From assembly GCF_024502345.1 (NCBI RefSeq), contig NZ_JALDNN010000001.1: a stretch of 64,000 nucleotides of DNA; one strand, given 5' to 3'. This document shows, in pieces, positions 26,981-64,000 of the stretch; the stretch's first letter is position 1, and each line of letters starts with the position of its first letter. Position numbers and translations under genes: made by a program. Under the pieces are notes generated by a model. That model saw only the letters and a list, made by a program, of their open reading frames with translations. It was not told the origin of the DNA and searched no databases. The DNA is from Escherichia coli (GTDB taxonomy: Bacteria; Pseudomonadota; Gammaproteobacteria; Enterobacterales; Enterobacteriaceae).

Positions 26981-27056
26981 TGGTGCCGATAATAGGAGTC
27001 GAACCTACGACCTTCGCATTACGAATGCGCTGCTCTACCAACTGAGCTATATCGGC
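26981..27056 (-). tRNA. thrW: tRNA-Thr (anticodon CGU), thrW
   Basis: Reverse complement GCCGATATAGCTCAGTTGGTAGAGCAGCGCATTCGTAATGCGAAGGTCGTAGGTTCGACTCCTATTATCGGCACCA. Confidence 0.9.
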
Positions 27057-31379: not shown

Positions 31380-32624
31380 TTAACACAAGCGTTTTTCGAT
31401 CCAGCCGGTGATTTCCTGAAGACCTTTGTCAAAATTCCGATACACCGGGTTAAATGGGATCTCTAATAATTTACCGTCAGCAGATGATGAGGTGATTAAG
31501 CGTGAGTCCTCTTCCGGGCTGAACGGATCGTTCTTCCAGTAGCCTGATAACATTGGCGTTGGGCAGCGACGCCCCAGCAATCCTTGCACTTTTAATGAAT
31601 AGCGATTCAGCTCCACGCGTAACGCGTCATCGGAAGCATCATGCATCCCCAAACGACTCGCCAGAACGTCAAGATACATTTCCGGCACCTGTTGCTGGCA
31701 CTTAAAATCACTCAACAGGGTATGAACTACCGGACCAAGACAGGCAACCGCTTTCAGACGCGGCGATTCAAGGTATGCCAGACGCACGGCAACGTTAGCG
31801 CCGAAACGGAAACCAAAGGCCGCGACGCGAGTGTGATCCACCCACGGTACGTTAGGCAGCGCCTTTAAGACGTGCTGATGCAACAGGCTGGAGTCCTGGG
31901 TGAGCTTCCATTTTGAAGAAAAGCCCACCGACGGCATATCAATAGTCAGCATCGCAATGCCGCGCGGCGCAAAATAACGTTCATACAGGCTGTAATAGTC
32001 CGTCTGCATCGCATCCAGACCACCACACATTAATACTGTCGGGAACGGGCCATCGCCTTTCGGCATATGCAAAAAGCCGGTGATGGGCGCACCGCCGGGT
32101 ACGGTAAACTCCATCTGCCGCATCGTGCCCGGCAGACGCTGGGCGGCCTCTTCATAGGCGCGGTTTGATAAAGCCTGCGCTTGCTCGGCCAGGTCATCTC
32201 CTTTCAGATGAGGATAGGCGGCAATGTTGTACAACGTAGCCGCATGCAGCCAGTGTCGACCACTGAGTTGCGGATCTTCTTCCGCACAGGCTTTTTGTTG
32301 CCACACCATCGCCTGGGTGGCCCACTCATAAATCCAGTTGCCACCACGGTAGCCAATCACGGTATCGTATAAATCATCATCGGTACGTTCAGCATCGCTC
32401 ATCACAATACGTGCCTGGACGTCGAGGATTTCACGTGGGTCAATGCCGCGCCAGATCCACATCAGACGGTTAATCATGCGATACCAGTGAGGGATGGTTT
32501 TACCATCAAGGGCCGACTGCACAGGCGGTTGTGCGCCGTGATTAAAGCGGCGGACTAGCGTCGAGGTTTCAGGATGTTTAAAGCGGGGTTTGAACAGGGT
32601 TTCGCTCAGGTTTGCCTGTGTCAT
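31380..32624 (-). CDS. frsA: esterase FrsA (fermentation/respiration switch protein)
   Basis: 414-aa ORF recognised as FrsA. Confidence 0.9.
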
Positions 32625-32715
32625 GGATGCAGCCTCCAGAATACTTACTGGAAACTATTGTAACCCGCCTGAAGTTAAAAAGAACAACGCCCGGCAGTGC
32701 CAGGCGTTGAAAAGA

Positions 32716-33174
32716 TTAGCGACCGGAGATTGGCGGGACGAATACGACGCCCATATCCCACGGCTGTTCGATCCAGGTATCTTGCGGGATATCAACAACA
32801 TAATCATCAACCAGCGGACGACCAGCCGGTTTTGCGAAGATAGTCACAAAATGTGCTTTTGGATACATTTCACGAATCGCAACCGCAGTACCACCGGTAT
32901 CCACCAGGTCATCAATAACGATGAAGCCTTCGCCATCGCCTTCTGCGCGTTTTAGCACTTTAAGCTCGCGCTGGTTGTCGTGATCGTAGCTGGAAATACA
33001 AACGGTATCGACATGACGAATACCCAGTTCACGCGCCAGTAACGCACCCGGTACCAGACCGCCACGGCTTACGGCAATAATGCCTTTCCATTGTTCAGAA
33101 GGCATCAGTCGGCTTGCGAGTTTACGTGCATGGATCTGCAACATGTCCCAGGTGACGATGTATTTTTCGCTCAT
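32716..33174 (-). CDS. gpt: xanthine-guanine phosphoribosyltransferase
   Basis: 152-aa [46 protein letters not shown]... Confidence 0.95.
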
Positions 33175-33434
33175 GTGAAGTGTCCCAGCCTGTTTATCTA
33201 CGGCTTAAAAAGTGTTCGAGGGGAAAATAGGTTGCGCGAGATTATAGAGATCTGGCGCACTAAAAACCAGTATTTCACATGAGTCCGCGTCTTTTTACGC
33301 ACTGCCTCTCCCTGACGCGGGATAAAGTGGTATTCTCAAACATATCTCGCAAGCCTGTCTTGTGTTGACAACATTTTCTGCTAACCCTGTGACCTGCAAT
33401 ACTGTTTTGCGGGTGATCGACAAGGAGACTTAAC

Positions 33435-34892
33435 GTGTCTGAACTGTCTCAATTATCTCCACAGCCGCTGTGGGATATTTTTGCCAAAATCTGTTCTATT
33501 CCTCACCCGTCCTATCATGAAGAGCAACTCGCTGAATACATTGTTGGTTGGGCAAAAGAGAAAGGTTTCCATGTCGAACGCGATCAGGTAGGTAATATCC
33601 TGATTCGTAAACCTGCTACCGCAGGTATGGAAAATCGTAAACCGGTCGTCTTACAGGCCCACCTCGATATGGTGCCGCAGAAAAATAACGACACCGTGCA
33701 TGACTTCACGAAAGATCCTATCCAGCCTTATATTGATGGCGAATGGGTTAAAGCGCGCGGCACCACGCTGGGTGCAGATAACGGCATTGGTATGGCGTCT
33801 GCGCTGGCGGTTCTGGCTGACGAAAACGTGGTTCACGGCCCGCTGGAAGTGCTGCTGACCATGACCGAAGAAGCCGGTATGGACGGTGCGTTCGGCTTAC
33901 AGAGCAACTGGTTGCAGGCTGATATTCTGATTAACACCGACTCCGAAGAAGAAGGTGAAATCTACATGGGTTGTGCGGGGGGTATCGACTTCACCTCCAA
34001 CCTGCATTTAGATCGTGAAGCGGTTCCAGCTGGTTTTGAAACCTTCAAGTTAACCTTAAAAGGTCTGAAAGGGGGTCACTCCGGCGGGGAAATCCACGTT
34101 GGCCTGGGTAATGCCAACAAACTGCTGGTGCGCTTCCTGGCGGGTCATGCAGAAGAACTGGATCTGCGCCTTATCGATTTCAACGGCGGCACACTGCGTA
34201 ACGCCATCCCGCGTGAAGCCTTTGCGACCATTGCTGTCGCAGCTGATAAAGTCGACGTCCTGAAATCTCTGGTGAATACCTATCAGGAGATCCTGAAAAA
34301 CGAGCTGGCAGAGAAAGAGAAAAATCTGGCCTTGTTGCTGGACTCTGTAGCGAACGATAAAGCTGCCCTGATTGCGAAATCTCGCGATACCTTTATTCGT
34401 CTGCTGAACGCCACCCCGAACGGTGTGATCCGCAACTCAGACGTGGCAAAAGGTGTGGTCGAAACCTCCCTGAACGTCGGTGTGGTGACCATGACTGATA
34501 ATAACGTAGAAATTCACTGTCTGATCCGTTCACTGATCGACAGCGGTAAAGACTACGTGGTGAGCATGCTGGATTCGCTGGGTAAACTGGCTGGCGCGAA
34601 AACCGAAGCGAAAGGCGCATATCCTGGCTGGCAGCCGGACGCTAATTCTCCGGTGATGCATCTGGTACGTGAAACCTATCAGCGTCTGTTCAACAAAACG
34701 CCGAACATCCAGATTATCCACGCGGGTCTGGAATGTGGTCTGTTCAAAAAACCGTATCCGGAAATGGACATGGTTTCTATCGGGCCAACTATCACCGGTC
34801 CACACTCTCCGGATGAGCAAGTTCACATCGAAAGCGTAGGTCATTACTGGACACTGCTGACTGAACTGCTGAAAGAAATTCCGGCGAAGTAA
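33435..34892 (+). CDS. pepD: aminoacyl-histidine dipeptidase (cytosol non-specific dipeptidase)
   Basis: 485-aa ORF recognised as PepD. Confidence 0.95.
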   Translation: MSELSQLSPQPLWDIFAKICSIPHPSYHEEQLAEYIVGWAKEKGFHVERDQVGNILIRKPATAGMENRKPVVLQAHLDMVPQKNNDTVHDFTKDPIQPYIDGEWVKARGTTLGADNGIGMASALAVLADENVVHGPLEVLLTMTEEAGMDGAFGLQSNWLQADILINTDSEEEGEIYMGCAGGIDFTSNLHLDREAVPAGFETFKLTLKGLKGGHSGGEIHVGLGNANKLLVRFLAGHAEELDLRLIDFNGGTLRNAIPREAFATIAVAADKVDVLKSLVNTYQEILKNELAEKEKNLALLLDSVANDKAALIAKSRDTFIRLLNATPNGVIRNSDVAKGVVETSLNVGVVTMTDNNVEIHCLIRSLIDSGKDYVVSMLDSLGKLAGAKTEAKGAYPGWQPDANSPVMHLVRETYQRLFNKTPNIQIIHAGLECGLFKKPYPEMDMVSIGPTITGPHSPDEQVHIESVGHYWTLLTELLKEIPAK

Positions 34893-34904
34893 TTATTTGA
34901 TTTG

Positions 34905-34936
34905 CTGCCGGATGGCGTTTAATCGCCTTCCGGCAG
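34905..34936. terminator. bidirectional stem-loop CTGCCGGATGGCG-N-CGCCTTCCGGCAG between pepD and prfH
   Basis: 13-bp stem with one mismatch, followed by TTT. Confidence 0.55.
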
Positions 34937-34948
34937 TTTCATCCTTCA

Positions 34949-35506
34949 TTATCCTTCGATAAAAGCCATCCCTGTAAATGTCCGTCTCGGGTTGCCACGT
35001 TCAATCTGGTGATGGAACATTCGCCGCTGCGATTTCAGCACCGCGCTATTTTCCTGTTGCTGCTGCTCCAGCTTCCAGGCAATCAGCAATCGTGCCAGCC
35101 GCTTGTTAGCATGCTGACTACGCTCTGACTGAACCTTCACGCTAATACCGGATGCCAAATGCGTGGCGCGTACCGCCGAGTCGGTTTTATTGACATGTTG
35201 ACCGCCCGGCCCCGACGAACGCAACGTCTCATAACGGATTGCATCCGATTGTTCCTGCTCATCAGCGGTAAAACGCCCAATGCCCAGAAACCAGTTTTTG
35301 CGCCCATGATGAGGCCGATACGGACTCGGACAAATCCACTGAATAGTGCCGCACCAGCTTTCGCTTAATGCCCATGCGTTATCGCCATCCAGAGAAACCA
35401 GCGCCGAACGCAGCGTGTCAGAGTAGCGGCCTGTTTCTGTTTCCAGCACCGTTACCGCGACGTCTTGTCGGGTAAAAACGACCAACAGAGAAGAACGCTG
35501 CGCCAA
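34949..35506 (-). pseudogene. prfH: prfH (peptide chain release factor homologue), N-terminally truncated/fused
   Basis: ...[58 protein letters not shown]...[13 protein letters not shown]...; canonical N-terminus absent. Confidence 0.75.
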
Positions 35507-35672
35507 TCGGGTAGCCGCGTCCGGGGTGTAAATCTGGCATCCCCACTACGCGCTGCATGTTGGGTAAATTTGCCGTGGTGTGTAATTGTTGGATCGCTAA
35601 ACTCTCGATCCACAGGTCATCAGATGCGATGGTAAATACCGCATCGGATAAGGGAAGAATATATTTGCCCAT
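35418..35672 (-). pseudogene. ykfJ: ykfJ (RtcB-like ligase) N-terminal fragment
   Basis: [62 protein letters not shown]... then frame lost. Confidence 0.65.
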
Positions 35673-35989
35673 GTACCATTCCATTTATACTCGTCATACT
35701 TCAAGTTGCATTTACTGCGACTGCGTTCGTTCACCCCAGTCACTTACTTATGTAAGCTCCTGGCGATTCACTCGCTTGTCGCCTTCCTGCAACTCGAATT
35801 ATTTAGAGTATATAAATATAAAAATCAGGAAATGGCAGACGAATCCAGGGCAAGAAAAAAAGAATTAATCCTGGAAAGGTCTGCAAAGAGTCATTGATAA
35901 AGGATTTGTCATGATTTACCTCCTTGCAGTTTGTGGAATAAGAAAACGCGCACATACCAAGCGGGCGTTATTTTCATTGCAAGCTGGAT

Positions 35990-36442
35990 TTAATGTTGCG
36001 GTTTATATCGCATATAAAAATTAGTAAACCACGCTCCCCGGCATTCAACGCGCTGCTGCTTAACTGTCTGAAAACCATAACGTTCAAAAAAGGGTTTTGC
36101 GGTTATGCTGGCATCTACCGTAAGTTCGGATTCAGACTTAATCAATGGTTTTAACAAGGCGCTGGCAACCCCGCGGCGGGTGTATTCAGGGTCAACAAAT
36201 AACATATCGATATAACGTTCAATGCGGGAAATAAAACCAACCGGTTGTGCATTAATGACGGCAACCCGCACTTGTGATTTCGCGAGTTTCTCCTTCCAGC
36301 GAGATTCGTCAATCTGCGCCCAGGCGGCAATTTGTTGTGGAGAATAGTGCTGACTGGAGGTCATCGTAACCGCTCTAATGAAAATAGCGCATAGTTGCTG
36401 AAAATCGCCAGGCTGATAGTTTCTTATTTGTATGTTATTCAT
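35990..36442 (-). CDS. yafP: GNAT-family acetyltransferase YafP
   Basis: 150-aa ORF recognised as YafP; overlaps dinB stop by 4 bp. Confidence 0.85.
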
Positions 36443-37494
36443 AATCCCAGCACCAGTTGTCTTTCCATTTGCGGATCCAGCAACGTCACATGCAGCCCCA
36501 CCAGTCGCACACCTCGCCCGCCGCGGCGTTCATCCCAGGTTTTACGCGCGGTGGCGATTAAGTCAGCTTTATTCAGCCTCGGCCAGACGTGCTCCTGGGT
36601 GGTTTGCTGAAAATCGTCGAACTTTAATTTCACCCCCTGGCGAGCAATCAGTAAATCAGGTTTTACCTTTGCCAGACGGCGTTCAAGTTCCGGATACAGC
36701 CGCTCGATAATCGCTTCACATTCAGACCAGTGATGAATATCTTCCGCCATCGTGCGTTCCACGCCGACGGATTTTCGCAACCGTTCGCTGTTAACATCGC
36801 GTTCGTCAATCCCCTGACTACGCTCCCACAAAATGCGGCCAAATTTGCCAAAGCGTTTAAGCAGCATCACCAGATCACACTTTTGTACATCACCGCAGGT
36901 CCGCAGCCCCATCGCTTCCAGTTTTGCCGCCGAGACTTTGCCGACGCCGGGGATTTTTGCCAGTGGTAAGGTTTGTAAAAATGCCGGAACTTCTGCCGGC
37001 GTAATCACAAACTGGCCGTTGGGTTTATTCATGTCGGAGGCGATTTTGGCGAGAAACTTTACTGGTGCCACGCCCGCAGACGCCGTCAGTTGCAGCTCGC
37101 TGAAAATCGTCTGGCGGATTTCCTGGGCGATGAGGGTCGCAGAACCGTGGCAATGGACGCTATCGGTGACATCGAGATAAGCCTCATCCAGTGACAACGG
37201 TTCAATGCGCGAAGTGTAGCGCGAGAAGATTTCACGGATATGATTTGAGGCTTCTTTGTAGGCGTCAAAGCGCCCCGGAAGCAAGGTGAGATGTGGGCAT
37301 AATTTGAGCGCCATCCCAGTAGGCATAGCGCTACGTACGCCAAATTTACGCGCGGGATAATTGGCGGTGCTGATCACCCCCCGACGTTCGCGGCTGCCGC
37401 CAATAGCAATAGGGATATCGCGCAGGGCGGGATTGTCGCGCATCTCCACCGCTGCGAAAAAGCAGTCCATATCCACATGAATGATTTTACGCAT
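36439..37494 (-). CDS. dinB: DNA polymerase IV
   Basis: [33 protein letters not shown]... 351 aa. Confidence 0.95.
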
Positions 37495-37564
37495 TGCTCA
37501 CCTCTCAACACTGGTAAAGTATACAGTGATTTCAGGGTTTGAGAAATGCGTAAAGATTCAGCAT

Positions 37565-38335
37565 TTAGCGCGTTCGTTGTGAAAGCACCTGCTGCTTATC
37601 CAGCTTTTGCACCAGCGGCTGCACCACTTTATCCCCATGCTGACCAAAGTATTGATACAGCGTATCGGACGCGCTTTTAGTCAGCACCATAATCTCAATG
37701 CGCCGATTGCCCGCGCTTTGCGGATTTTTGGCATCCAGCAGCATCTGGTCCGCCATTGCGCTTACCTGCATCACTTTATCTTCCGGCATTCCGGCCTCTT
37801 CCAGCACCCGACGAGCCGAAAGCGCGCGGTCACCCGAAAGGTTCCAGTTGTTGTAGATATTGTTTTTGTAGGCCATCGCATCGGTATGCCCGGTAATAAT
37901 AATTTTATTATCGAGCGAGTCGAACACTGGCGCTAACTCCACCAACAGCGTTTTAAAGAACGGCATAATCTGCGCGCTGCCGCGTTCGAACATATTGCGA
38001 TTCTGGTCGTCTTTAATCAGCACGCGTAATCCCTGCGGGACAATCTCCATCTCCAGATTCGCTTCCATATGCGCATCACGGGCAATGGTGTTGATACTGG
38101 TTGCCAGCTCACCAAGCTCGGTGGCGGATTTCTTCTTCAGCAGCGCCGTTTTCTCGTTGACGTCGCGCGCTTTTTTCTCCGTCTCTTCCGGCACCGCCAC
38201 GGTGGCAGGTTTTGGCGGATGAGACGGGCTGATTTTATTTAACGGCGACAGCCCACCACCGTTAAAAATCGACTGCCCGTGCAGCGCGGCGATAATGCTT
38301 TCACGCTCGGATTTACTGACGCTGTTGACAATCAA
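37565..38335 (-). pseudogene. lafU: lafU (mbhA) MotB-like Flag-2 remnant (OmpA-like C-terminal domain only)
   Basis: ...IIITGHTDAMAYKNNIYNNWNLSGDRALSARRVLEEAGMPEDKV... peptidoglycan-binding domain with no N-terminal TM part. Confidence 0.7.
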
Positions 38336-40034
38336 CTTTATCGTCGTCACCAAAGGGGCCGAGCGTATTTCCGAGGTTTCTGCCCGCTTCACCCTGGACG
38401 CGATGCCCGGCAAGCAGATGGCGATTGACGCCGATCTTAACGCCGGGTTGATCAACCAGGCGCAGGCGCAAACCCGGCGTAAAGATGTCGCCAGCGAGGC
38501 CGATTTCTACGGCGCGATGGACGGGGCATCGAAGTTTGTGCGCGGGGATGCCATCGCCGGGATGATGATTCTGGCGATCAACCTGATCGGCGGCGTCTGT
38601 ATCGGGATCTTCAAATACAACCTGAGCGCCGATGCCGCCTTCCAGCAATATGTGCTGATGACCATCGGCGACGGCCTGGTGGCGCAGATCCCTTCCCTGC
38701 TGCTCTCCACGGCGGCGGCGATAATCGTCACCCACGTCAGCGACAACGGCGATATCGCCCATGACGTGCGCCACCAGTTGCTGGCAAGCCCGTCGGTGCT
38801 CTACACCGCTACCGGGATTATGTTTGTGCTGGCGGTGGTGCCGGGAATGCCGCATCTGCCGTTTTTGCTGTTCAGCGCCCTGCTTGGCTTTACCGGCTGG
38901 CGAATGAGCAAACGCCCGCAGGCAGCGCAGGCGGAAGAGAAAAGCCTCGAAACGCTGACCCGCACCATCACTGAAACCAGCGAGCAACAGGTCAGTTGGG
39001 AAACCATTCCGCTGATCGAGCCCATCAGCTTAAGCCTCGGCTACAAACTGGTGGCGCTGGTGGACAAAGCGCAGGGCAACCCGCTCACCCAGCGGATTCG
39101 CGGCGTGCGGCAGGTGATTTCTGACGGCAACGGCGTGCTGCTGCCGGAGATCCGCATTCGGGAAAACTTCCGCCTTAAGCCCAGCCAGTACGCTATTTTC
39201 ATCAACGGCATTAAGGCTGATGAAGCGGATATTCCGACGGATAAACTGATGGCCCTGCCCTCCAGCGAAACCTACGGCGAGATTGACGGCGTGCTGGGGA
39301 ACGACCCGGCGTACGGGATGCCGGTGACCTGGATCCAGCCTGCGCAGAAAGCGAAGGCGCTGAATATGGGGTATCAGGTGATCGACAGCGCCAGCGTGAT
39401 TGCCACCCATGTGAATAAGATTGTACGCAGCTATATTCCTGATTTGTTTAACTATGACGACATCACACAGTTGCATAACCGTTTGTCGTCGATGGCACCG
39501 CGCCTGGCAGAAGACTTAAGCGCGGCGCTGAATTACAGCCAGTTGCTGAAAGTGTACCGCACACTACTGACCGAAGGCGTTTCCCTGCGCGATATCGTCA
39601 CCATCGCCACCGTGCTGGTCGCCAGTAGCGCGGTGACTAAAGATCATATTCTGCTGGCGGCCGATGTACGCCTGGCGCTGCGGCGCAGCATTACCCATCC
39701 GTTCGTTCGCAAGCAGGAGCTGACGGTGTATACGCTGAATAATGAGCTGGAAAATCTGCTGACCAACGTGGTGAATCAGGCGCAACAGGGCGGTAAAGTG
39801 ATGCTCGACAGCGTGCCAGTGGACCCGAATATGCTCAACCAGTTCCAGAGCACGATGCCACGGGTGAAAGAGCAGATGAAAGCGGCGGGGAAAGATCCGG
39901 TGCTGCTGGTGCCGCCGCAGCTGCGTCCTTTGCTGGCGCGCTACGCAAGGTTGTTTGCGCCGGGGCTGCATGTGCTGTCGTATAACGAAGTGCCGGACGA
40001 GCTGGAGTTGAAGATTATGGGGGCCTTGATGTAG
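38336..40034 (+). pseudogene. lfhA: lfhA (fhiA) FlhA-like Flag-2 remnant lacking N-terminus and promoter
   Basis: ...ERISEVSARFTLDAMPGKQMAIDADLNAGLI... starts mid-protein at the deletion junction. Confidence 0.75.
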
Positions 40035-40039
40035 GTATT

Positions 40040-40215
<176 letters not shown>

Positions 40216-40219
40216 ACAA

Positions 40220-40717
40220 TTATGAAATGATACGCTCCCCGGCACTAAAATCCGTTATGTCTCCCGCCCAATCAATGGGATATAACCCTCGCGCCACATC
40301 GCGATGGAACGTTGAGAATGGCCAATCTCTCACCTGCTTTACCCAGCCATGTTTCACTGGATTTATATAAATATAATCAACATGATGTCGGTAATCTGTG
40401 GTATTGCGAATGGCATGCTCCCAAAAACGCGGTTGCCAGATATTATTCAATCCGCAAGCATGGGTGAACTGCTTTTTAATCTCCCGCCAGCGGGAGGAAA
40501 AATCATCATCGCTTTCGGGTAATGTCCATATGCAATGCATATGCTCCGGCAAAACTACCCAGGCATTAATTTCAAAAGGTCTGGCTCGCTTAACTTTAAT
40601 AATGGCGTTACGGAGCGTCTGGTACTGGGTAGTCAAAAGTTGGCTTCGACGATTCCGTAAATTCACCGTGAAAAACCAGCTTCCCCCCTTGAGGTAATAA
40701 CGACGATATTCAGACAT
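40220..40717 (-). CDS. rayT: REP-associated tyrosine transposase RayT (YafM)
   Basis: 165-aa IS200-like TnpA flanked by REPs on both sides. Confidence 0.85.
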   Translation of the reverse strand: MSEYRRYYLKGGSWFFTVNLRNRRSQLLTTQYQTLRNAIIKVKRARPFEINAWVVLPEHMHCIWTLPESDDDFSSRWREIKKQFTHACGLNNIWQPRFWEHAIRNTTDYRHHVDYIYINPVKHGWVKQVRDWPFSTFHRDVARGLYPIDWAGDITDFSAGERIIS

Positions 40718-40789
40718 AGCGACTCCTTTTTCTCAACGGTAAGAGGAAAAGGAAAGGTCGGCAATGAGGTGATGGAATAACGGGAAAGC

Positions 40790-40900
40790 AGCTCGCAAAA
40801 ACGCACAAATTTGTAGGCATGATAAGACGCGCCAGCGTCGCATCAGGCATCGGTGCACAACTGCCGGATGCGGCGTAAACGCCTTATCCGTCCTACAAAA
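40790..40900. repeat. REP/BIME element
   Basis: Same palindromic unit family as 40040..40215. Confidence 0.8.
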
Positions 40901-41642
40901 TCGTCTCCTCCGTCAAAATCCGGCGCGCGCCTAAAAAATGATCCTGCCAGAAAGGTTCAGCTAACCGACTTACCCGAATGGTTTCCCCGGTGCGCGGTGA
41001 CTCAATAAACTGACCGTCGCCCAGATACACCCCCATATGGTCGGCAATCTCACGACTGTGAATATGGAAAAACAGCAAATCTCCCCGGCGCAGGTCGTTA
41101 TTCGCCACAATCGTTGCCCGGCGGTAGTGATACATCTCATTGGCCGTGCGCGGGAGCTTCGCCTCGAGGATCTTGTTGTAGGCATAAAAAACCAACCCGC
41201 TACAGTCGAAGCCTTTATCAGGCCGCGTGCCGCCCCAGACGTAAGGCTTGCCAAGCTGCTGCTCCAGGCGGTGAATCGCCACTTCGGTGATGTTATGCAG
41301 GTGATCGCTGCTTAAAAAGTGGTTGTTTTCCGCCAGCGCCTGCCAGCGTCTGTCACTCGCCTTGAGCGGCGCAGGAAACCATTCTGGATGCTGTTTTATC
41401 TGTTCGCGGTTGTGCTGGCGCAGCGCCCTTCTGCTTTCGGCATTGCCTTCCACAATATAGCTGGCCTGCTTTTTCAGATGGGTTTGGTACTGTTTTAATA
41501 AACGCGCACGGTTTTGCATCCGCTGGCGGGCGGCGTAGCTGAAAGAGATATGTGATGTGGTGGCGCTGGCAAATGAAGAAAACGGCAAACAAATCAACAG
41601 TAATCCCGACAATACAAAGGATGGAATCGACGGCAAGGACAT
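40893..41642 (-). CDS. yafL: NlpC/P60-family lipoprotein peptidase YafL
   Basis: ...GFDCSGLVFYAYNKIL... NlpC/P60 Cys motif; start taken at MSLPSIPSF. Confidence 0.85.
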   Translation of the reverse strand: MSLPSIPSFVLSGLLLICLPFSSFASATTSHISFSYAARQRMQNRARLLKQYQTHLKKQASYIVEGNAESRRALRQHNREQIKQHPEWFPAPLKASDRRWQALAENNHFLSSDHLHNITEVAIHRLEQQLGKPYVWGGTRPDKGFDCSGLVFYAYNKILEAKLPRTANEMYHYRRATIVANNDLRRGDLLFFHIHSREIADHMGVYLGDGQFIESPRTGETIRVSRLAEPFWQDHFLGARRILTEETIL

Positions 41643-49206: not shown

Positions 49207-49719
49207 TCATTGTGATATTTCCATCTCTGTGATTAATACCGGATAAGCATTTAATTGCAGAGTTTGCACGAAATTATCGCAGATAACTGGCAATAACAAT
49301 AACCCATCAGCCCGCTGCTGTAATACCTCCATTCGTTCTACTGATTCAACATTAACAACCAAACCAAGGGCATTTAGCGATTTAAGGATCTCCAGATGTT
49401 CACTCATCCAGCGCAGAGAAAAAGGATCATCCCCAATTATAAAAACAGCCCCCCAGCCGGTTAATAACTGGCGTTTCATTACAGAGCCAGGATGAAGTCG
49501 AGTACATATTACAGGAAATACCCCCTGTTGCGATGGTTCCGATGATGTGGATAATTCAGAAATATTTTCCATTGTTAGTGAAGAATTAACATCCATTAAT
49601 AATGGTGAAACAACCTCACTTTCCTTGCTAGTAATGGCTGCACTAATCTGAAAGGGAAATAACAATATTATTACGTATAAACTCATTTTTAACATAACAC
49701 ATTCAATCCGTTTATTCAT
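49207..49719 (-). CDS. hypothetical secreted protein (signal peptide), AT-rich
   Basis: ORF with N-terminal hydrophobic leader; bracketed by H-repeat remnants. Confidence 0.45.
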   Translation of the reverse strand: MNKRIECVMLKMSLYVIILLFPFQISAAITSKESEVVSPLLMDVNSSLTMENISELSTSSEPSQQGVFPVICTRLHPGSVMKRQLLTGWGAVFIIGDDPFSLRWMSEHLEILKSLNALGLVVNVESVERMEVLQQRADGLLLLPVICDNFVQTLQLNAYPVLITEMEISQ

Positions 49720-49785
49720 GTTATAGAATAATGATGCTATAAATCATCATTAATGTTCAATTATTTAATCACACAATTTGAAAAA

Positions 49786-50289
49786 TCATTGACCAATGTG
49801 AATTGGCAATGTACCACTCAAGTTAAAATCACTGAATATTTTATCAATTTCTCTTGCAGTTTCTATATATTTAACCTCTTTCGTACTTGCATTATAAATA
49901 GCCCAAGCCTCGGGATGGGATGTTCCACCAAACCTTACAAAAAAACTTGATTTCATATTATTATATAAATTAACATCAGGAAAAGGATCTTCTCCAAAAT
50001 TAGTAGTATTGAATAATGAAAGTTCGTATCGCTTAGAAAATTCTGTTGGTAGGATAGCTTCACTGCCATCAATAGCATTCATCCAGAGTTTGTTACCATT
50101 ATATTCCAACAATAATCTCTGTTTTGCATGTGTCTTATCTCGTTCTTTAACGACAGCGAATACCTTTTTAACAACTTGCTGTGCGGATGGTCCTATTGTA
50201 TTACCAAAAGCTGGCAACCCGATTTTGCCATAAACACTCTCCTGAATGAAATAAATATCCGTTTTATCGGCCTCGACAATATCTACCAT
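49786..50289 (-). CDS. hypothetical protein (167 aa), AT-rich
   Basis: ORF only; bracketed by H-repeat remnants. Confidence 0.45.
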   Translation of the reverse strand: MVDIVEADKTDIYFIQESVYGKIGLPAFGNTIGPSAQQVVKKVFAVVKERDKTHAKQRLLLEYNGNKLWMNAIDGSEAILPTEFSKRYELSLFNTTNFGEDPFPDVNLYNNMKSSFFVRFGGTSHPEAWAIYNASTKEVKYIETAREIDKIFSDFNLSGTLPIHIGQ

Positions 50290-50609
50290 TTATCCCTCCA
50301 AACAAGACCTGACTCCAGTACAAGAGCATAGTGTGTAGTAAACACTTCATGCTCTTGCCTTGACCATTGAAATAACAACTTTCGTTTGTTTACTGTACGC
50401 TGTCTAAATAGCTGCGTGGAATAAAGTTGCACTTTTTATCATCCCTTGCAGAGCAAGATTACGAAAGCCCGCCCCCGAAAGGACTGACGCGAGGTAGTCT
50501 CTGTCCGCAGCTGCTTTCACATCTTACATCTTGCCCCTGCCTTGAGTATCTTATCTTTCTTTGAAATATTAATAGCGATGTTCCGTATCCCTGAAAATAA
50601 TTCTGTTGC

Positions 50610-51100
50610 ATTTCATCTTCTTATTATAAAGTCGTCTTTATTCATTACCACGTCCAGATGCCAGTGCAATTTATTCTCCACTTGCCAGTGATTTCGGTTC
50701 GCTGTGGCGAACTTCTCTGCGGTTAAATCAGCAGAAATGCTATAATATCTGTCCGTCATTTCTGGCTCTTTCTTTTGTTCTGTTATTATTGAACGAAAGG
50801 AGACTGCCATGCATAATTTCTTCAGCCCTTTTCATTCAAACGTGAAATCAATAAGTTCATCAGGGACATCGCAAATAATATGAAGACGGATTTTAATGAC
50901 ATAAATCGCTCCCTTGCGGCGACTCTTGTCATAAGAGTGCCGAAGCGTTTTTCCATCAATTGCAATGACATCTTTATCATCTGAGGAATGGCAGTCACGC
51001 ATCCAGTTAATAAAGCACTCATGAAATTTTGCAGGACTGATACAGGATACAACTCTGGCAATGATATCGTGAACAGGAATACCATTTTCAAAATCACCAT
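50610..51100 (-). pseudogene. H-repeat (ISAs1-family) remnant, internally deleted
   Basis: C-terminal piece ...[58 protein letters not shown]... plus a second copy of the about 150-bp segment seen at 48990..49140. Confidence 0.65.
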
Positions 51101-53246
51101 ATCACTTCAAAAAATTGGGATGTGTTTCCCCAAATCATCTATATCTTCCCAGCCTTATGCACCAAAAATAACGGCGCAAATAGTTAACAGATAGAATATC
51201 TGGCAATTTATGTTCCACTTTCCAGGCTTGCCTGTAATCGGGGATAATAGAAATATGTTCCATCAATTTTTTAAGTTCCATTTTGTCCCCCTTAATTATG
51301 CAATGAGTATTTGATCATGTATAAGCAATGAAAAACAGCTTTAGGTAATAAGGAACACCTCAATTATTGAACATAAAATGCGAATTATTTAGTACAAAAA
51401 AAACAGCATTACGTGATTTTTCCCTGGGAGTACAGTGTGAAGTTTCCGGCATGGCGGGATGCGGATGGGTTTGAACTGGGGTGAATAGGCACTACATGTC
51501 TACATTTTCCCGGTCACCAACCCCTCAATCTTATGAACTTAACCTCGGCTCACCGTTTTCGATTCCATCCAATAAATGACCCGGTTGGATGTGGGCTGAT
51601 CGCCAACAACTTTGCCATCTGCAGAGATTAGCTTCAGCTCTTTATTAGCCTCATCACCGAAGTAAATCATGCGGTAGCGAAAATAACCGCCCCAGGGTTC
51701 ACGTCCACCCAGCGAACTTTGCATAAACCAGGCGCGGGAGTCGTGAACCTGGTCATCATAGAGGGCCAGTAATTCAGCGCATGGCTGAGTACGCGTTCCC
51801 GTTCCCAGTGAATCAATAAAAAATTGTGGATAGAGTCCGTCTCCCATAGCCTTAATTTGCTGATATTCTTTTGCTTCATCATCGCCATTAATCAGATACA
51901 CCGGATATTTAGGAATGACATCCACAAGAATCTGAATGGCTTTCTCCATGACGCTGCCGTTAATATCGCGCGTCCATCCTTTATAATCGCTCTGAAATTC
52001 TCGGGCTGCCTCTCGCAACTGATACTGAGCATTGGTTGGGTCAAGGATAGGAATGCCCTGATTACTTTCATCAAGTGTGCCATTCCCTTTCTGCTTGTTC
52101 GCCCGCTCTTTTTCAATATTTTCCATTTGTTCTTTACGCGCTTTAGCCTCTTTATCAAGTCCATCTTTATCCAGCTGTGGCGCCTTAATATAAAAAGGTT
52201 GCACAAGAAGGCTGTTATTCGCATAGCGACCGATACGCCAGGCGGTGATCCAGCCGATCTGATCGCTAATTGCGCTTTCAAGAACCTGGGCAAGTTGATA
52301 GGAGTGATAACCTTCCCTCGTATCAATCATTTCTTCTGTACCCTGCAAGGTGGTGTTCAGCAGCGTTTGTCGCCAGATGTTGAAGCGTTTTGTTAATGAA
52401 TTAGCAATCGTAAATTCCTTTACGCTAGAAGGACTCATAATTCGCAGAGGCGACACACCTTTTATTAATGGAGTAACAAATTTAGAATAAACAGCAAGTG
52501 GTGCTCCTGAATCAAATGCAGCAAGATACATATCATGCAGTGCTATCTGAGAAAGAATTTCGCCTGAGTCACCACAGGACTTCCCCTGATCGCGAACGGG
52601 ATAGCCACCACCGACATCAGAGTGCATCCCCGGATAGATAATTTCCGTCTGGACGACGGATTGAATCCAGCGGAAAGCACAGCCGCTGCTCATGCGCGGC
52701 AACGAAGTGGCGGCAGCATTTAATCAGGCCGGGAAACTGCCTCTCATCAGGGAGTTGCTGAGTACTATCGGCCCATCCCATATGACCGGCAGCGCCCGGT
52801 AAAACATGCGCCGCCCCCACAGAAGCTACGGTATCCAGCAGCCCCAAAAACTCAATACTGACAGCTAACCCGGCCAGCATCACCTGTTGCTCCTGCGGGC
52901 AAGCTAACTGAGTCAACCAGTTAACAAAAGTTCGTGCTTCCGCTGCGCCACGGGAAAATCCGTAGATAAACAGCTTTACGTTTAGCAGGCGCGGACTGGC
53001 TTGCTCTAACAGTCCCTGTAATTTTTCCAGGTAGGGGTTAATCACATTGCGACGATTCACTTCACCAGTCATAGGCCAGGGAGCGCGCATAAGAGGAATG
53101 TGCTCTTTTGCCACATTATCATCCAGTCGCTTATGGGAAGGGTCAATGGAATAGTTCAGGGCATCCACGAGGCGTAATAATGCCCAATTAATTCGATCTT
53201 CACCACCAGTAGCGAACTCCAGCCCGCTGTTGCTGTAATCCATTTC

Positions 53247-54303
53247 GGCTTTGTTGAATAAATCGAACTTTTGCTGAGTTGAAGGATCAGATCACGTATC
53301 TTCCCGACAACGCAGACCGTTCCGTGGCAAAGCAAAAGTTCAAAATCACCAACTGGCCCACCTACAATAAAGCCCTCATCAACCGTGGCTCCATAACTTT
53401 CTGGCTGGATGATGAAGCTATTCAGGCCTGGTATGAGTCAGCAACACCTTCTTCACGAGGCAGACCTCAGCGCTATTCTGACCTTGCCATCACGACTGTG
53501 CTGGTCATTAAACGCGTATTCAGGCTGACCCTGCGCGCTGCGCAGGGCTTTATTGATTCCATTTTTTCTCTGATGAACGTTCCGCTACGCTGCCCGGATT
53601 ACAGCTGTGTCAGCAGGCGGGCAAAGTCGGTTAATGTCAGTTTCAAAACGCCCACCCGGGGTGAAATCGCACACCTGGTAATTGATTCCACCGGGCTGAA
53701 GGTCTTCGGTGAAGGCGAGTGGAAAGTCAAAAAGCATGGCCAGGAACGCCGCCGTATCTGGCGTAAGCTGCATCTCGCCGTTGACAGTAAAACACATGAA
53801 ATCATCTGCGCTGACCTGTCGCTGAACAACGTTACGGACTCAGAGGCCTTCCCCGGGTTAATCCGGCAAACCCACCGGAAAATCAGGTCAGCCGCCGCCG
53901 ATGGCGCTTACGATACCCGGCTATGTCACGATGAACTGCGGCGTAAGAAAATCAGCGCGCTTATCCCTCCCCGAAAAGGTGCGGGTTACTGGCCCGGTGA
54001 ATATGCAGACCGTAACCGTGCAGTGGCTAATCAGCGAATGACCGGGAGTAATGCGCGGTGGAAATGGACAACAGATTACAACCGTCGCTCGATAGCGGAA
54101 ACGGCGATGTACCGGGTAAAACAGCTGTTCGGGGGTTCACTGACACTGCGTGACTACGATGGTCAGGTTGCAGAGGCTATGGCCCTGGTACGAGCGCTGA
54201 ACAAAATGACGAAAGCAGGTATGCCTGAAAGCGTGCGTATTGCCTGAAAACACAACCCGCTACGGGGGAGACTTACCCGAAATCTGATTTATTCAACAAA
54301 GCC
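53247..54303 (+). mobile_element. IS903-group element copy C, 9-bp TSD ATCCATTTC
   Basis: Terminal IRs at 53247..53264 and 54286..54303; ATCCATTTC at 53238..53246 and 54304..54312. Confidence 0.92.
53279..54247 (+). CDS. IS903-group transposase (322 aa), identical to copies A and B
   Basis: Identical translation. Confidence 0.9.
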   Translation: MKDQITYLPDNADRSVAKQKFKITNWPTYNKALINRGSITFWLDDEAIQAWYESATPSSRGRPQRYSDLAITTVLVIKRVFRLTLRAAQGFIDSIFSLMNVPLRCPDYSCVSRRAKSVNVSFKTPTRGEIAHLVIDSTGLKVFGEGEWKVKKHGQERRRIWRKLHLAVDSKTHEIICADLSLNNVTDSEAFPGLIRQTHRKIRSAAADGAYDTRLCHDELRRKKISALIPPRKGAGYWPGEYADRNRAVANQRMTGSNARWKWTTDYNRRSIAETAMYRVKQLFGGSLTLRDYDGQVAEAMALVRALNKMTKAGMPESVRIA

Positions 54304-54659
54304 ATCCATTTCACCTATCTTGGGAAATGGTGTGCCTACACCCGGTATATAGTAGTTAAAATATCCCTGTTCTTCTGCGTTCTGATAGGTCGTATGAAAC
54401 AGTTTGGCAATATTGGTTGGGTGTCCAGGAGTGTCATTATATTCATTATTATTTGTACCATCAAAAAACAGACTAATATGCAGACTTTGATTACACGTAA
54501 AGCCAATTCTAAATCCAGCCTGTTTACTACAGTTGGTTTTGTGCTCTTCTGTTTTATTGATTTGTTTTAGGTAGTTCGCGTTTACCTGCGCTTCAGATAA
54601 TATTAATCGCCCATCTTCAGGGAACAACGGGGGGGCATAACACGGAAAAGCCAGACCAC

Positions 54660-55202
54660 TTATTTTGCTGGACATGTTGCAGGTTCCTTCATCTCGCGGG
54701 GTTCTTTGATAGGATAATTCGGTGTGCCATAGCCCTCGCAGACGGTTGTCACTTTAATCTGATTACACGGCAGAAAATGAACGGTCAGGCCACAACGTTC
54801 AGCGCCGTATTCCGGGATGTCAACAATTACTTTATATTTTTGATAATTTGCAGCATGTTTAGCATAAGCATCTTCTTCATAGCCAAAACCTTCTTTTTTC
54901 ATTGCAATAGGTTCAAGGGGGTTCGGGTCTACTTCCCACTCGATCCGGGCTTTTAATCCAGAATGCCACTTCTTTGGTAACATTATGCAGCAATATCCAC
55001 CGCCCAAACCATGGACCCGATAACCATTTACGGTGAACCAATTAATACTGATACCTTTAATATGATTTATTGCCCGGAGATCACCAGCAGTATAATCGTC
55101 GTAATTAGCTGCTGAGCAACCCGAAATCACCATCAAAATTAACACCAGACAGCCTTTAACTACTTTTGTTATATTCATTCCATTTCTTATTTTGCTGGAC
55201 AT
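54660..55202 (-). CDS. putative lipoprotein (lipobox ISGCSA), possibly effector-associated (immunity or chaperone-like)
   Basis: Signal peptide with lipobox Cys; immediately upstream of the Tle1-like gene; shares the MSSKI start and about 20 bp with it. Confidence 0.45.
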   Translation of the reverse strand: MSSKIRNGMNITKVVKGCLVLILMVISGCSAANYDDYTAGDLRAINHIKGISINWFTVNGYRVHGLGGGYCCIMLPKKWHSGLKARIEWEVDPNPLEPIAMKKEGFGYEEDAYAKHAANYQKYKVIVDIPEYGAERCGLTVHFLPCNQIKVTTVCEGYGTPNYPIKEPREMKEPATCPAK

Positions 55203-56138
55203 GTTGCTGGTTCTTTTACTTTGAGAGATTTTAATTGATGGGTATTGTTTCTACGACAATAAAGTTTTGACAAAGAAGCAAATAAAATGCATATCTTTCG
55301 ATTGTCACACATTGGAATATCGACAGAGCATTGATGATATTACGCAAAATATATTGCAGCCAAGTGAACTGACATTACGATCGAACACAAATGCAACATG
55401 ATGGATACTACCATTACATGTCGAGCTTGATTTTCCGTTTATTTCACGATTATCTCTTGATATTAACAGCTACGGACTTTTAAACAGATAAATCTCCCCG
55501 TACATCACCACAATATTATCCTTCGAAGTCCCGCAAAGCTCCGAAATATTTCGCGTCATTGGCCCTGAAAGCAATATCAAGACAGTGGGCAAAATAGCTT
55601 TCCTGACTGAGTTCACTGTGGGATGCAAATAAAGTTTCATCCTAACCCTAAAAACAGAGAGAAACGTCGCGCGCTCTCCTATTCATAAAAAATCCCTTTT
55701 ATATCAGTATGTTGTGAGCACTTACACCCGAGACTGGATCGTTTTGCCTTTCATGGGAGAATGATTAAGGGCGCTAAAGTATCATCCTAATTTTCGCCCA
55801 GGCTCGAAAAATACGGTAAATGGTGAAAATAAAGATTCATCCTTTTCCGATGTTGCCCGTTCCAACACGTAAGCAGTCAGTCAGAAAAAACACATAGATC
55901 CAATCCCTAGCGAGCATTGAGCTCTCTCATCCGTGCCAACTGCTCCAACCCTTGGACGCCCTAAATGCTTACCCAAAAAAATCAACACCTTCTTTTAAAA
56001 ACACAATCAAAAATGACACCCTTATATCCATTTAACCTAAACAGCCTTCCCCCCACTGCACTAGCTAGGGCTCGTAGTTCGGCGCAAGGCTGAAGTCGCT
56101 TGGCTGCTTCGCTGTGCAGATCCATGACCCACTTTCCA

Positions 56139-57302
56139 TCAAACTCCCGGTTGTAGTTCCACAAGCATCTCGCGAGTCTTGCCGGCCCGCTCCACTAACA
56201 AGACCACAACATCTCCAACGTTCTTGTCGTCTAGCCGGGCCTGTAATGTGGTGACGTCGTCGACGGCGATACCGTCGATGCTGATAACGCGATCGCCGGG
56301 CACGATGCCGCCTGCGGTGACCTCGACGCCGACGAGCCCGGCCCTGTGCGCCGCCGAGCCCGGCGTCACGCGCAATACGAATACGCCCTTACTGCCGGTC
56401 AGCGCCTGCAGACGCGCGTTGAGCTGCTCATCCACCTCGATGCCCAGCGCCGGACGGATGTACTTGCCGGTCTTTATGAGTTGCGGCACCACGCGCATGA
56501 CGGTATCGACCGGCACCGCAAAGCCGATGCCGGCCGAGGCGCCAGACGGACTGTAGATGGCGGTATTGATGCCGATCAGCCGCCCAGCCGAATCGAGCAG
56601 CGGGCCACCGGAATTGCCGGGGTTGATAGCGGCGTCGGTCTGGATCAGGTGGTCAATGGCCGGGCCACTGGCGTCGCCGGAAAGGGTGCGGTCAAGCGCC
56701 GAGACGATGCCGGTGGTGAGCGTCCAGTCGAGCCCGAAGGGATTGCCAATGGCAAAGACCTTTTGCCCCACCTTGAGATCGGCACTGGTGCCCACCGGCA
56801 CCGCCGGCGGGCGCTTGAAGCCGACGCCAATCTTGAGTACCGCGATGTCGTGCGCAGGACTAGCGCCAACGAGCGCAGCCTGATAATCGCGACCGTCGGC
56901 CAGTTTGACCGTGGCAGACGATGCCCCCTGGATCACGTGGAAGTTGGTCACCACGTGGCCGGCATCGTCCCAGATGAAGCCGGAGCCGGTGCCGCGCGGC
57001 ACGGAAAAGACATTGCGCGACCAGACGTGACGCACTAGTTGTGCCGTGGTGATGTAAACCACCGACCCGCGCGATTTCTCGAACAGCTCGATGGTGGTTT
57101 TTTCGTCGGCGGCCAGGTCGCCGCGCGGCGTCACCGTGCGCTCCTGCGTTTCGTGGGGACTGAACCAGGCTTCGATGGCGGGCAGGAACTGCCACAGCAG
57201 CATGAGTGCGGCGATGCAGCCAGTGATGACGAGCCAGCGCCGGATGAAGCGGTCCGGCGCCGGGCGGCTGTAGGGGTCGGGGTAGGTCACGTCATTCTCC
57301 AT
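56139..57302 (-). CDS. HtrA/DegP-family serine protease with PDZ domain (high-GC)
   Basis: Trypsin-like motifs ...TNFHVI..., ...GNSGGPL...; C-terminal PDZ-like region. Confidence 0.8.
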   Translation of the reverse strand: MENDVTYPDPYSRPAPDRFIRRWLVITGCIAALMLLWQFLPAIEAWFSPHETQERTVTPRGDLAADEKTTIELFEKSRGSVVYITTAQLVRHVWSRNVFSVPRGTGSGFIWDDAGHVVTNFHVIQGASSATVKLADGRDYQAALVGASPAHDIAVLKIGVGFKRPPAVPVGTSADLKVGQKVFAIGNPFGLDWTLTTGIVSALDRTLSGDASGPAIDHLIQTDAAINPGNSGGPLLDSAGRLIGINTAIYSPSGASAGIGFAVPVDTVMRVVPQLIKTGKYIRPALGIEVDEQLNARLQALTGSKGVFVLRVTPGSAAHRAGLVGVEVTAGGIVPGDRVISIDGIAVDDVTTLQARLDDKNVGDVVVLLVERAGKTREMLVELQPGV

Positions 57303-57309
57303 GTTGAAA

Positions 57310-58299
57310 TCAGCGCCAAAGGCCGCCGGTGCGCCAGCGTGGCGGACGTGGTGATACGGTCACCTCGGGGACGAAACGGGCCGATGGAAACGGCGGCATC
57401 GCGGGCGGCGGAGCAAGTTCCAGCAAGCGCTCAATGCGTTCAGCCGTCGCCGGATGCGTGCGCAACCAGGAGGGTTCCGGATTGCCCCATCCGGGCAGCA
57501 GCCAGGCGCGCCAGGAGCGGCTCACCCGCTCGATCTTGGCGAGCGCCGAGGCCAGCCCGTGCGGGTCGCCGGTCAATTCGGCAGCGAGCCGGTCGGCGTC
57601 GAATTCGCGCACCCTGGACAAGCCCAACTGAGCCAGCAAGGCCAGCTGTGGCGCGACCGCCAGTAGAAGCAACGCGGGCCAATTGACTTCCGCGACTCCA
57701 AGCAGCAGCGCTGGCAAGCTGAGCACGATCGCAAGCTGCCCCAGCAGGGCCAGCAGATGGGTCAGCCGGCTGATGGAATCGGCCAGGCCCATGACACGCA
57801 AATCCTCGTTCGCAATATGCGCGATTTCGTGGCCGAGCACGCCGGTCAACTCGCGGGGCGTGAGGCTACGCAGCAGGCCGTCGGTCAGCGCGATGGCCGC
57901 GTGATGCTTCGAACCGGTGGCGAAGGCGTTGACGACCCCGCTGGGCACGTAGTGCGGTACCGGCACGGCAGGCAGCCCGGCCCGCGCCGCCAGTTCGCGC
58001 AACACAGCCCAAAGATCGGGCGCTTCATCCGGGTACAGGGGGCGTGCGCCATACAGCCGCAAGGTCAGTCCGGAGGCGGCCGCCGGTTCGAGCAGCAGGG
58101 TGAACCCCGCGGCCGCAAGCGCCAGCCACAGCCCGCCGTCACCCAACAGCAGGCTGCCAGCGACGGCGGCAATCCCGAGCAGGGTCAGCACCAACAGCGC
58201 GGTTTGCAGGCGATTGAGCCAGCGATGCCGCGCGCCGACATCCTGCGCGTGGCGCAGATCACGACTGATCATCTGAGCGTTCCCCGGCGGTCCGGTCAT
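57310..58299 (-). CDS. M48-family zinc metalloprotease (HtpX-like)
   Basis: HEIAH zinc-binding motif in GHEIAHIANED; TM segments. Confidence 0.75.
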   Translation of the reverse strand: MTGPPGNAQMISRDLRHAQDVGARHRWLNRLQTALLVLTLLGIAAVAGSLLLGDGGLWLALAAAGFTLLLEPAAASGLTLRLYGARPLYPDEAPDLWAVLRELAARAGLPAVPVPHYVPSGVVNAFATGSKHHAAIALTDGLLRSLTPRELTGVLGHEIAHIANEDLRVMGLADSISRLTHLLALLGQLAIVLSLPALLLGVAEVNWPALLLLAVAPQLALLAQLGLSRVREFDADRLAAELTGDPHGLASALAKIERVSRSWRAWLLPGWGNPEPSWLRTHPATAERIERLLELAPPPAMPPFPSARFVPEVTVSPRPPRWRTGGLWR

Positions 58300-58762
58300 C
58301 GCGCTCGCGCAGCAGCCAGTAAGTCACCCCGAGCGCCAGCGTAGCACCTGCGAGCGCGGCGATCTTGCCGGGGCTCGCCTCGGGGTCGAGGATCACGAAC
58401 TTGCGCGCCAGCGCGATCAGGCCGATGAGGATCACCGTCTTGACCTGGATGATGCTGTCCCGACGCAGCGCCACGCGCACGATGGAATGCTTGAATTCCA
58501 TGGCGATGAGCAGCGTCATGATCATGGCGAACACGGTCTGGAAGACCTTGTGATCAAGCGGATTGAACGCGTCGAGGATCAGCAGCGTGAAGACAATGGA
58601 CATGAGCTGGAGCAGCGACACCACGATGATCACGGCGATCACCGCAGACAGCACGAGCGCGATGACCTGCTCGAAGCGCTCGTAGAACGTCATCACGGCC
58701 CATTGGGCGCGAAAAGTTTTCGTCAGCGTAGGTTGCTTTTCATTCATCGCCATTTCCCTCAA
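58259..58762 (-). CDS. PsiE-like phosphate-starvation-inducible membrane protein (start uncertain)
   Basis: Small polytopic membrane protein resembling PsiE. Confidence 0.55.
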   Translation of the reverse strand: MREMAMNEKQPTLTKTFRAQWAVMTFYERFEQVIALVLSAVIAVIIVVSLLQLMSIVFTLLILDAFNPLDHKVFQTVFAMIMTLLIAMEFKHSIVRVALRRDSIIQVKTVILIGLIALARKFVILDPEASPGKIAALAGATLALGVTYWLLRERDDRTAGERSDDQS

Positions 58763-59610: not shown

Positions 59611-59779
59611 CTCTGCGCCTTCCAGGGCGATGGCGATCCGTTCGTTGTCGTCGATTTTCGCTTGTTGGCGATGCTTCAGCTCGTCACGCCTGTGGCGATT
59701 GGTACGAGCAAAACGCCATAACGCAACCCCATGCCAACATTGGCAAGTAGCGACACCATCAGCCAGATGGTCGGCCCGT

Positions 59780-61498: not shown

Positions 61499-61586
61499 TC
61501 GGACACTCAGCCCACGCTGATCCGGACACCTGTTCCACGGCCATTCGGACAGGCAGTCGGAGCGCAGCGACGCAGGGGTTGCATTG

Positions 61587-62342: not shown

Positions 62343-62359
62343 GGTGGGATTCCTTGTGT

Positions 62360-63889: not shown

Positions 63890-64000
63890 GACGACCTCTC
63901 TGCTTCGAAAAAGAGGTCGATGGTAGTGAATAAATCCTGCGTAGCTGCCTGCCTGGAAAGTGTCCGGATGGCCGTGGAATCGGTGTCCGGATGCTCGTGG

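Follow-up and report, generated by a model that had tools for sequence, protein, structure and literature searches.

Deletion scars at rtcB-prfH and Flag-2 in an Escherichia coli genome: K-12 junctions that do not mark K-12 lineage

Truncated genes that break off exactly where those of Escherichia coli K-12 break off raise the question of whether the strain carrying them belongs to the K-12 lineage. We asked this of a 64,000-nt stretch of E. coli DNA (contig NZ_JALDNN010000001.1 of assembly GCF_024502345.1; hereafter the window), in which two sets of truncated genes lie between pepD and rayT: prfH' and rtcB' (ykfJ'), the remnants of an RtcB2–PrfH pair, and lafU' and lfhA', the remnants of the Flag-2 lateral-flagella cluster. 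An initial annotation had read both as decay scars reproducing known K-12 deletions and had placed the strain in a K-12-like lineage. We found its description correct and its lineage inference unsupported, so its interpretation is only partly supported; both scars, as seen in the window, are already known features. Most probably they are two independent, old deletion alleles with K-12 junctions that segregate across E. coli and beyond and whose states are exchanged by recombination, and we take the scars of the window to be identical by descent to those of K-12.

Breakpoints and remnants

We aligned the window to K-12 MG1655 and to references in which the genes are intact (SE11 for rtcB-prfH and MLI023K1 for the complete 35-kb Flag-2 cluster), and both breakpoints in the window are those of K-12. 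The window is colinear with K-12 MG1655 over 32000–36438 and 36439–40095 with zero indels; the junctions are identical to the nucleotide, and no offset from K-12 was seen at either. The positions estimated in the initial annotation, about 35.5 kb and 38.33 kb, were accurate, the exact ones being 35472|35473 and 38331–38333.

At 35472–35473 the window lacks 1,027 bp of the SE11 sequence, an out-of-frame deletion with an imperfect short repeat, TG(T/C)CGG, at both ends; a single event of this kind would have removed the 3' 83% of rtcB2 together with the first 30 codons of prfH. The junction position is common to K-12, 88-3493 and the records L013–L018, and one single-nucleotide polymorphism (SNP) lies beside it (T at 35468 in the window, C in K-12). 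The prfH'/ykfJ' locus of K-12, a truncated RtcB2–PrfH operon, has the same ~1-kb deletion, the same junction and the same out-of-frame remnants. Record L012 is likewise colinear across the junction, with SNPs beside it, and was missed by the junction search. This record, a divergent lineage with intact Flag-2, also bears an extra 165-bp deletion within prfH' (10898–10901 in its own coordinates, window 35115–35279).

The Flag-2 junction lies within an ATC microhomology at 38331–38333, where the window lacks 35,365 bp that MLI023K1 has, and its string GCTGTTGACAATC|AACTTTAT is common to the window and K-12. The ends of the deletion bear an imperfect 12-bp direct repeat, CTGnTGAnnATC, and in 36 of 36 scar copies examined the crossover falls in the last three bases of this repeat and the 13 nt to the left of the junction are identical; all 20 intact copies have one and the same lfhA end. 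Direct repeats at this deletion figure in the account of Ren et al. 2005, as relayed in PMC6993521. No longer direct or inverted repeats joining the two ends were found above chance. The K-12 scar, known there as fhiA (lfhA') and mbhA (lafU'), has the same junction, retained lengths (1,701 and 769 nt) and flanking genes (dinB and rayT), from which the window differs by a sequence divergence of 2.5–4.7% in the remnants. Stubs of 1,700 bp (lfhA) and 769 bp (lafU) have also been described in a sequence type 131 (ST131) strain without Flag-2 (PMC5369007).

Profile searches recovered all four fragments named in the initial annotation (RtcB-, PrfH-, FlhA- and MotB-like) at the positions it had assigned. 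On the minus strand, prfH' (34949–35472) comprises the 3' 524 nt of the release-factor-H gene and matches SE11 prfH up to 35472; its initial 30 codons are gone and its GGQ motif is kept. The 185-residue open reading frame (ORF) that contains it (34949–35506) matches TIGR03072 (release factor H) at profile positions 31–200 of 200 with 276 bits, and thus falls short of a full-length PrfH of 200 residues with an intact RtcB2 partner, the partner gene being reduced to 66 codons. That partner, rtcB2'/ykfJ' (35473–35672, minus strand), keeps ~66 codons from the start of the gene for the PrfH-associated RtcB ligase: an 88-residue ORF (35418–35684) covers positions 1–69 of 379 in NF007153 and 1–58 of 356 in TIGR03073, and its 104 bits compare with an NF007153 cutoff of 407, far from the ~379-residue catalytic RtcB domain. 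The K-12 counterpart is annotated as "RtcB family protein, missing C-terminus".

The lafU' remnant (37565–38333, minus strand) consists of 769 nt, the last ~255 codons with the OmpA-like domain. Its first ~52 codons are deleted, and neither the N-terminal membrane segment of MotB type nor the plug is present; as annotated, the ORF takes its start (38350) from the opposite side of the junction. Intact LafU has 307 residues and carries MotB_plug, so lafU' does not encode a complete LafU/MotB stator: its ORF matches NF005273 at positions 42–297 of 297, and Pfam gives OmpA only. Because its score (478) still clears the NCBIfam cutoff of 383 for NF005273, annotation pipelines name it LafU. On the opposite strand and back to back with it, lfhA' (38334–40034, plus strand) spans 1,701 nt, 566 codons plus a stop, corresponding to LfhA residues ~132–697. 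It is part of an open 579-codon ORF (38295–40034) that begins at 38295 within antisense lafU sequence, and the exact 579-residue allele is rare (28 blocks). This ORF matches FHIPEP at positions 99–656 of 657 and TIGR01398 at 114–677 of 678 (591 bits against a cutoff of 772); with the first 131 LfhA codons deleted, it is not a complete FlhA/LfhA export gate, which has the full N-terminal membrane and cytoplasmic domains. Both remnants are orthologous to the terminal genes of intact Flag-2 (E. coli 042, W and MLI023K1) and of the lateral flagella of Vibrio and Aeromonas; unlike an intact cluster, the window lacks the 35,365 bp that hold every other Flag-2 gene.

Three terms of the initial annotation need qualification. 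"Fusion" is right at the DNA level and wrong for the proteins, the 1,027-bp deletion being out of frame and lafU' and lfhA' lying on opposite strands. "Promoterless" is right in that the native promoters and 5' ends have been lost; scanning 34800–40300 for promoters and terminators gave 7 against 4.3 and 8 against 6.0 in shuffled sequence, counts that are not above chance and settle the matter neither way. "Decay" is overstated, as each remnant frame in the window remains open and lfhA' is open in most of the E. coli scar alleles described below.

Frequency of the scars and the question of lineage

Neither scar is rare. Among 5,426 complete E. coli genomes, the Flag-2 junction was present in 4,086 (75%; 461-bp probe, covered in one piece) and the rtcB-prfH junction in 2,647 (49%; 451-bp probe, covered in one piece), from which inclusion–exclusion bounds the share of genomes with both scars at 24–49%. 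O157:H7 is among the carriers (PMC1586002; PMC11420993), as are B1 strains. These counts sit with published observations that an rtcB-prfH deletion of ~1,000 nt is common to K-12 and O157 (Baranov et al. 2006, PMC1586002), that the truncated Flag-2 pair occurs in 76 of the 76 E. coli without Flag-2 in a set of 100 E. coli (PMC6993521), and that E. albertii has the same pattern (PMC11420993). The scars assort independently of each other: every one of the four combinations of states is found among the records L003–L012, with the Flag-2 scar accompanied by intact rtcB-prfH in SE11 and L006–L010, the rtcB-prfH scar accompanied by intact Flag-2 in L012, and both loci intact in L005 and L011.

The sequence around the junctions is not especially close to K-12 either. 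Over the interval the window is 97.2% identical to K-12 and 98.1% to its best matches (lfhA', 95.4% to K-12), and K-12 ranked below more than 20 other records, which is not the place of a nearest relative. The yafN-yafO toxin-antitoxin pair, 759 bp in K-12, is absent from the window at 36438/36439, so that the K-12 gene order dinB-yafN-yafO-yafP is not reproduced. The flanking core genes match other strains best: O121/O103-type strains in the thrW-pepD core (99.4–99.5%) and FDAARGOS_943/944 in the dinJ-yafV core (99.8–99.9%). The nearest relatives of the window are the draft and metagenome contigs L013–L018 (99.9–99.99%); contigs of GCA_050029375.1 and GCA_017173755.1 match at 99.99%. Presence of yafNO differs among these near-identical relatives: it is found in L014 and L017 (3 SNPs in 7–8 kb) and absent from L013, L016 and L018.

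What speaks for reading the scars as markers of K-12 lineage, and hence for placing the strain in a K-12-like lineage, is that the junctions are identical to those of K-12. Against this stand the spread of the scars through so much of E. coli, O157:H7 and B1 strains included, and into E. albertii, the occurrence of the Flag-2 junction in other genera (see below), the independent assortment of the two scars, and an interval and flanks that resemble strains other than K-12. For these reasons we conclude that neither scar is informative on K-12 lineage, and we regard the placement of this strain on their account as very improbable.

Origin and persistence of the Flag-2 scar

How the scar came to be so widespread is a separate question. 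In our preferred account, a ~35-kb deletion between the short imperfect direct repeats would have taken out the Flag-2 cluster and reduced lafU and lfhA, the genes that face outward at its two termini, to 3' ends without the operon promoters. The scar may have arisen once, long ago, and homologous recombination with the lafU and lfhA ends as arms would since have swapped scar and intact states between strains. Such exchange would keep bringing in sequence on which selection had acted in functional copies; the stubs would thus look conserved yet slowly gather frameshifts.

The E. coli alleles fit this account. Across ten alleles (nine scar, one intact), the 565-codon part of lfhA' has no stops, a pairwise synonymous divergence (dS) of 0.10–0.22 except for the closest pairs, and a ratio of nonsynonymous to synonymous divergence (dN/dS) of 0.02–0.06. 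A metagenome scan with the right-arm pattern added 40 loci, giving 25 unique scar alleles and 11 unique intact full-length alleles. Three of the 25 scar alleles have a frameshift in lfhA', whose frame is open in the other 22, and lafU' is disrupted in 3 of 22. Of 348 lfhA' polymorphisms, 175 are common to scar and intact alleles (13 nonsynonymous, 162 synonymous), and the random expectation is 3.1 nonsynonymous changes to 1 synonymous. Scar-only variants (24 nonsynonymous, 78 synonymous) are modestly richer in nonsynonymous changes than intact-only variants (8 and 63; odds ratio 2.4, p = 0.047), which indicates a mild relaxation of selection in scar alleles. Sharing on this scale, half of all polymorphisms, points to an exchange of sequence between scar and intact alleles by homologous recombination and largely accounts for the low dN/dS of the E. 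coli stubs. At least three haplotypes next to the junction are present in both states.

We also considered whether the low dN/dS proves the E. coli remnants functional, and we rejected this proposal since half of the polymorphisms are common to intact alleles.

The dS of lfhA' (38334–40034) among E. coli alleles is two to three times the value for pepD and dinB, core genes in the flanks, and nearly as deep as the E. albertii distance (0.23); this high synonymous diversity suggests inter-species exchange at the locus.

Gain of the cluster is documented: in ST131, the stubs are found in subclade B1, and Flag-2 was acquired at their site in later subclades (PMC5369007). In this the locus resembles presence/absence islands swapped through conserved flanks, such as the Flag-2 "insertion" of ST131 subclade B2 (PMC5369007), with arm haplotypes common to both states; unlike the usual such islands, it has truncated ends of genes from the island itself for arms, and its junction is conserved across genera. 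Because haplotypes are shared and gain is documented, a single ancient scar with exchange between states is our favoured explanation for E. coli and E. albertii.

At the DNA level the Flag-2 junction of the E. albertii type strain is identical, and the background around it is ~8% diverged. The longest identical run between the two species around the junction, 80 bp, is not exceptional, no unusual shared tract was found, and lfhA' of this strain carries a 22-bp frameshifting deletion. A protein scan of genome contigs returned mostly generic FlhA, with useful loci only from E. albertii and two Citrobacter, and protein searches found truncated LfhA ORFs in further taxa, whose LfhA part begins at the same residue and is preceded by antisense-lafU sequence. 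In all, eight lineages of two families share the junction (...A-AT[C/T] | AAC-TT[T/C]...), with the register preserved in both arms: E. coli, E. albertii, Atlantibacter subterranea, Atlantibacter hermannii, a lineage in the 90% protein cluster of Ewingella americana, Enterobacter sp. Ap-916 and two further lineages. Among them dS is saturated (above 1), dN/dS is 0.03–0.23, and the 566-codon frame is open in seven of the eight, the exception being E. albertii. The A. subterranea scar allele is almost identical to the intact allele of its own species (dS 0.03), and the Ewingella cluster contains truncated and full-length members. In A. hermannii, at least nine DNA haplotypes, which carry 58 synonymous polymorphisms, encode one and the same 562-residue protein allele (111 contigs, 239 blocks), and the nucleotide diversity of lfhA' (1.0–1.2%) compares with 0.7–1.1% in neighbouring core genes. 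Neither an intact LfhA nor a named LfhB of this species turned up in our searches, in which LfhB clusters at 91% identity could be its intact loci; none of five Atlantibacter genomes has a complete flag-2 locus (De Maayer et al. 2020, PMC6993521). The same study has already reported lfhA/lafU stubs in many Enterobacterales; in the literature searched, we found no statement of junction identity at the nucleotide level or of selective constraint on these stubs.

These wider findings weigh against a single scar spread by exchange. The same junction occurs in Atlantibacter, the Ewingella-like lineage and Enterobacter sp. Ap-916 at saturated synonymous divergence, and a single origin with homologous recombination is hard to extend over cross-genus distances. 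No intact allele was found in A. hermannii, yet its lfhA' looks strongly constrained, with normal and almost wholly synonymous diversity, a pattern that refreshment from intact copies does not easily explain. Nor did we find a clear founder haplotype or dip in diversity around the junction: the invariant zone in E. coli is only 77 bp, diversity is no lower beyond it, and A. hermannii shows no clear dip at all. With the breakpoint identical to the nucleotide in at least eight lineages of two enterobacterial families and both stubs open and constrained, it is conceivable, and we suggest it only tentatively, that the scar is a conserved genetic structure and not a one-off accident, whether because the stubs were domesticated or because Flag-2 is lost, and possibly regained, by a precise and repeatable event.

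Were lafU' and lfhA' a domesticated two-gene remnant under purifying selection, for example with a truncated FlhA-like protein interacting with the primary flagellar export apparatus, the open frame at saturated dS and low dN/dS would be expected, as would the A. hermannii allele, kept across its haplotypes at core-like diversity with no intact allele found; fhiA mRNA is moreover detectable in EDL933 (PMC6863780). The translation start is not conserved, however, with stops upstream of the junction in A. hermannii and in record L147, and LafU' lacks the membrane segment required for reaching the periplasm. About 10–12% of E. coli alleles are broken, as is that of the E. albertii type strain, and shorter alleles occur in A. 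hermannii as well, where the 91% LfhB clusters might represent the intact loci. The locus also serves as a neutral integration site in K-12. On balance we consider domestication unlikely. Recurrent loss of Flag-2 by precise, site-directed excision at two fixed positions, with the scars young and derived from local intact alleles, would account for the identical junction in eight lineages and two families, for an lfhA arm that matches the local intact allele up to the junction in E. coli and A. subterranea, and for the several E. coli haplotypes found in both states. The ends have features that such a process might use: in the intact cluster of record L003, a perfect 8-bp inverted repeat, GACGCTGT-N9-ACAGCGTC, is centred on the lafU endpoint, which falls in its loop (3030–3065), and the lfhA endpoint lies directly 3' of a 10-bp palindrome, GATGATCATC, which includes a GATC site (38395–38413). 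Yet the conserved Flag-2 genes include no known recombinase, all lineages have in common a microhomology of just AT(C/T), 2–3 bp, with no longer repeats linking the ends, every scar has the same crossover inside the imperfect repeat, and the change documented in ST131 is a gain and not a loss (PMC5369007). Excision of this kind appears decidedly improbable to us.

Surroundings of the scars and consequences for the strain

The genes of the region run in the order gpt(-), pepD(+), prfH'(-), rtcB'/ykfJ'(-), yafP(-), dinB(-), lafU'(-), lfhA'(+), rayT(-), yafL(-). Between the two scars, yafP (35990–36442, minus strand; a GNAT acetyltransferase) and dinB (36439–37494, minus strand; DNA polymerase IV) are intact, the dinB stop overlapping the yafP start (ATGA); the DinB protein sequence of the window is ubiquitous (38,381 blocks). 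Between rtcB' and yafP lies a full-length enterobacterial repetitive intergenic consensus (ERIC, also IRU) repeat on the minus strand (35695–35815, core 35728–35771), as in K-12, identified with a consensus based on the ERIC1R/ERIC2 primers. At this site SE11 (rtcB-prfH intact) and L012 have a form shorter by ~65–72 bp (72 bp in SE11). The most diverged stretch nearby is rayT (40220–40717, minus strand) with its flanking repetitive extragenic palindromic (REP) region, which is 89–90% identical to K-12 over 40000–41000.

On the far side of pepD, thrW, a tRNA-Thr(CGT) gene, lies at 26981–27056 on the minus strand. The island upstream of it (2000–27056) holds an integrase, a SIR2-family protein, WYL/HTH regulators and an inovirus Gp2-like gene. 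Strain PSJ-29 matches 76% of the island at 99.9% identity, and coverage stays below 80% in every complete genome. For 41000–64000, too, no complete E. coli genome reached 80% coverage. The best matches of 49600–64000 refer to a Tle1-like phospholipase effector of a type VI secretion system (T6SS), IS21-family elements, a YfjI-family protein and a cation:proton antiporter, and this part is probably a variable aspV-side island.

RtcB2–PrfH rescues and religates ribosomes cut by colicin E3 and gives E. coli ATCC 25922 protection from this colicin, an activity that the truncated K-12 version lacks (PMC9223846). With both rtcB2 and prfH truncated, repair of colicin E3-damaged ribosomes is predicted to be lost in the present strain, which would be as sensitive to colicin E3 as K-12. 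Likewise, as all other Flag-2 genes (35,365 bp) are missing, we predict that the strain can build no lateral flagellum. The same losses affect roughly half (rtcB-prfH) and three quarters (Flag-2) of complete E. coli genomes.

These findings call for caution: pseudogene scars of this type are shared polymorphisms, possibly ancestral ones, and are unfit for lineage assignment. The Flag-2 junction, found from Escherichia to the Ewingella-like lineage, offers a tractable case for studying how presence/absence polymorphisms persist across species, and stubs that do not decay raise the question of whether "pseudogene" annotations such as those of lfhA and lafU may hide selected functions.

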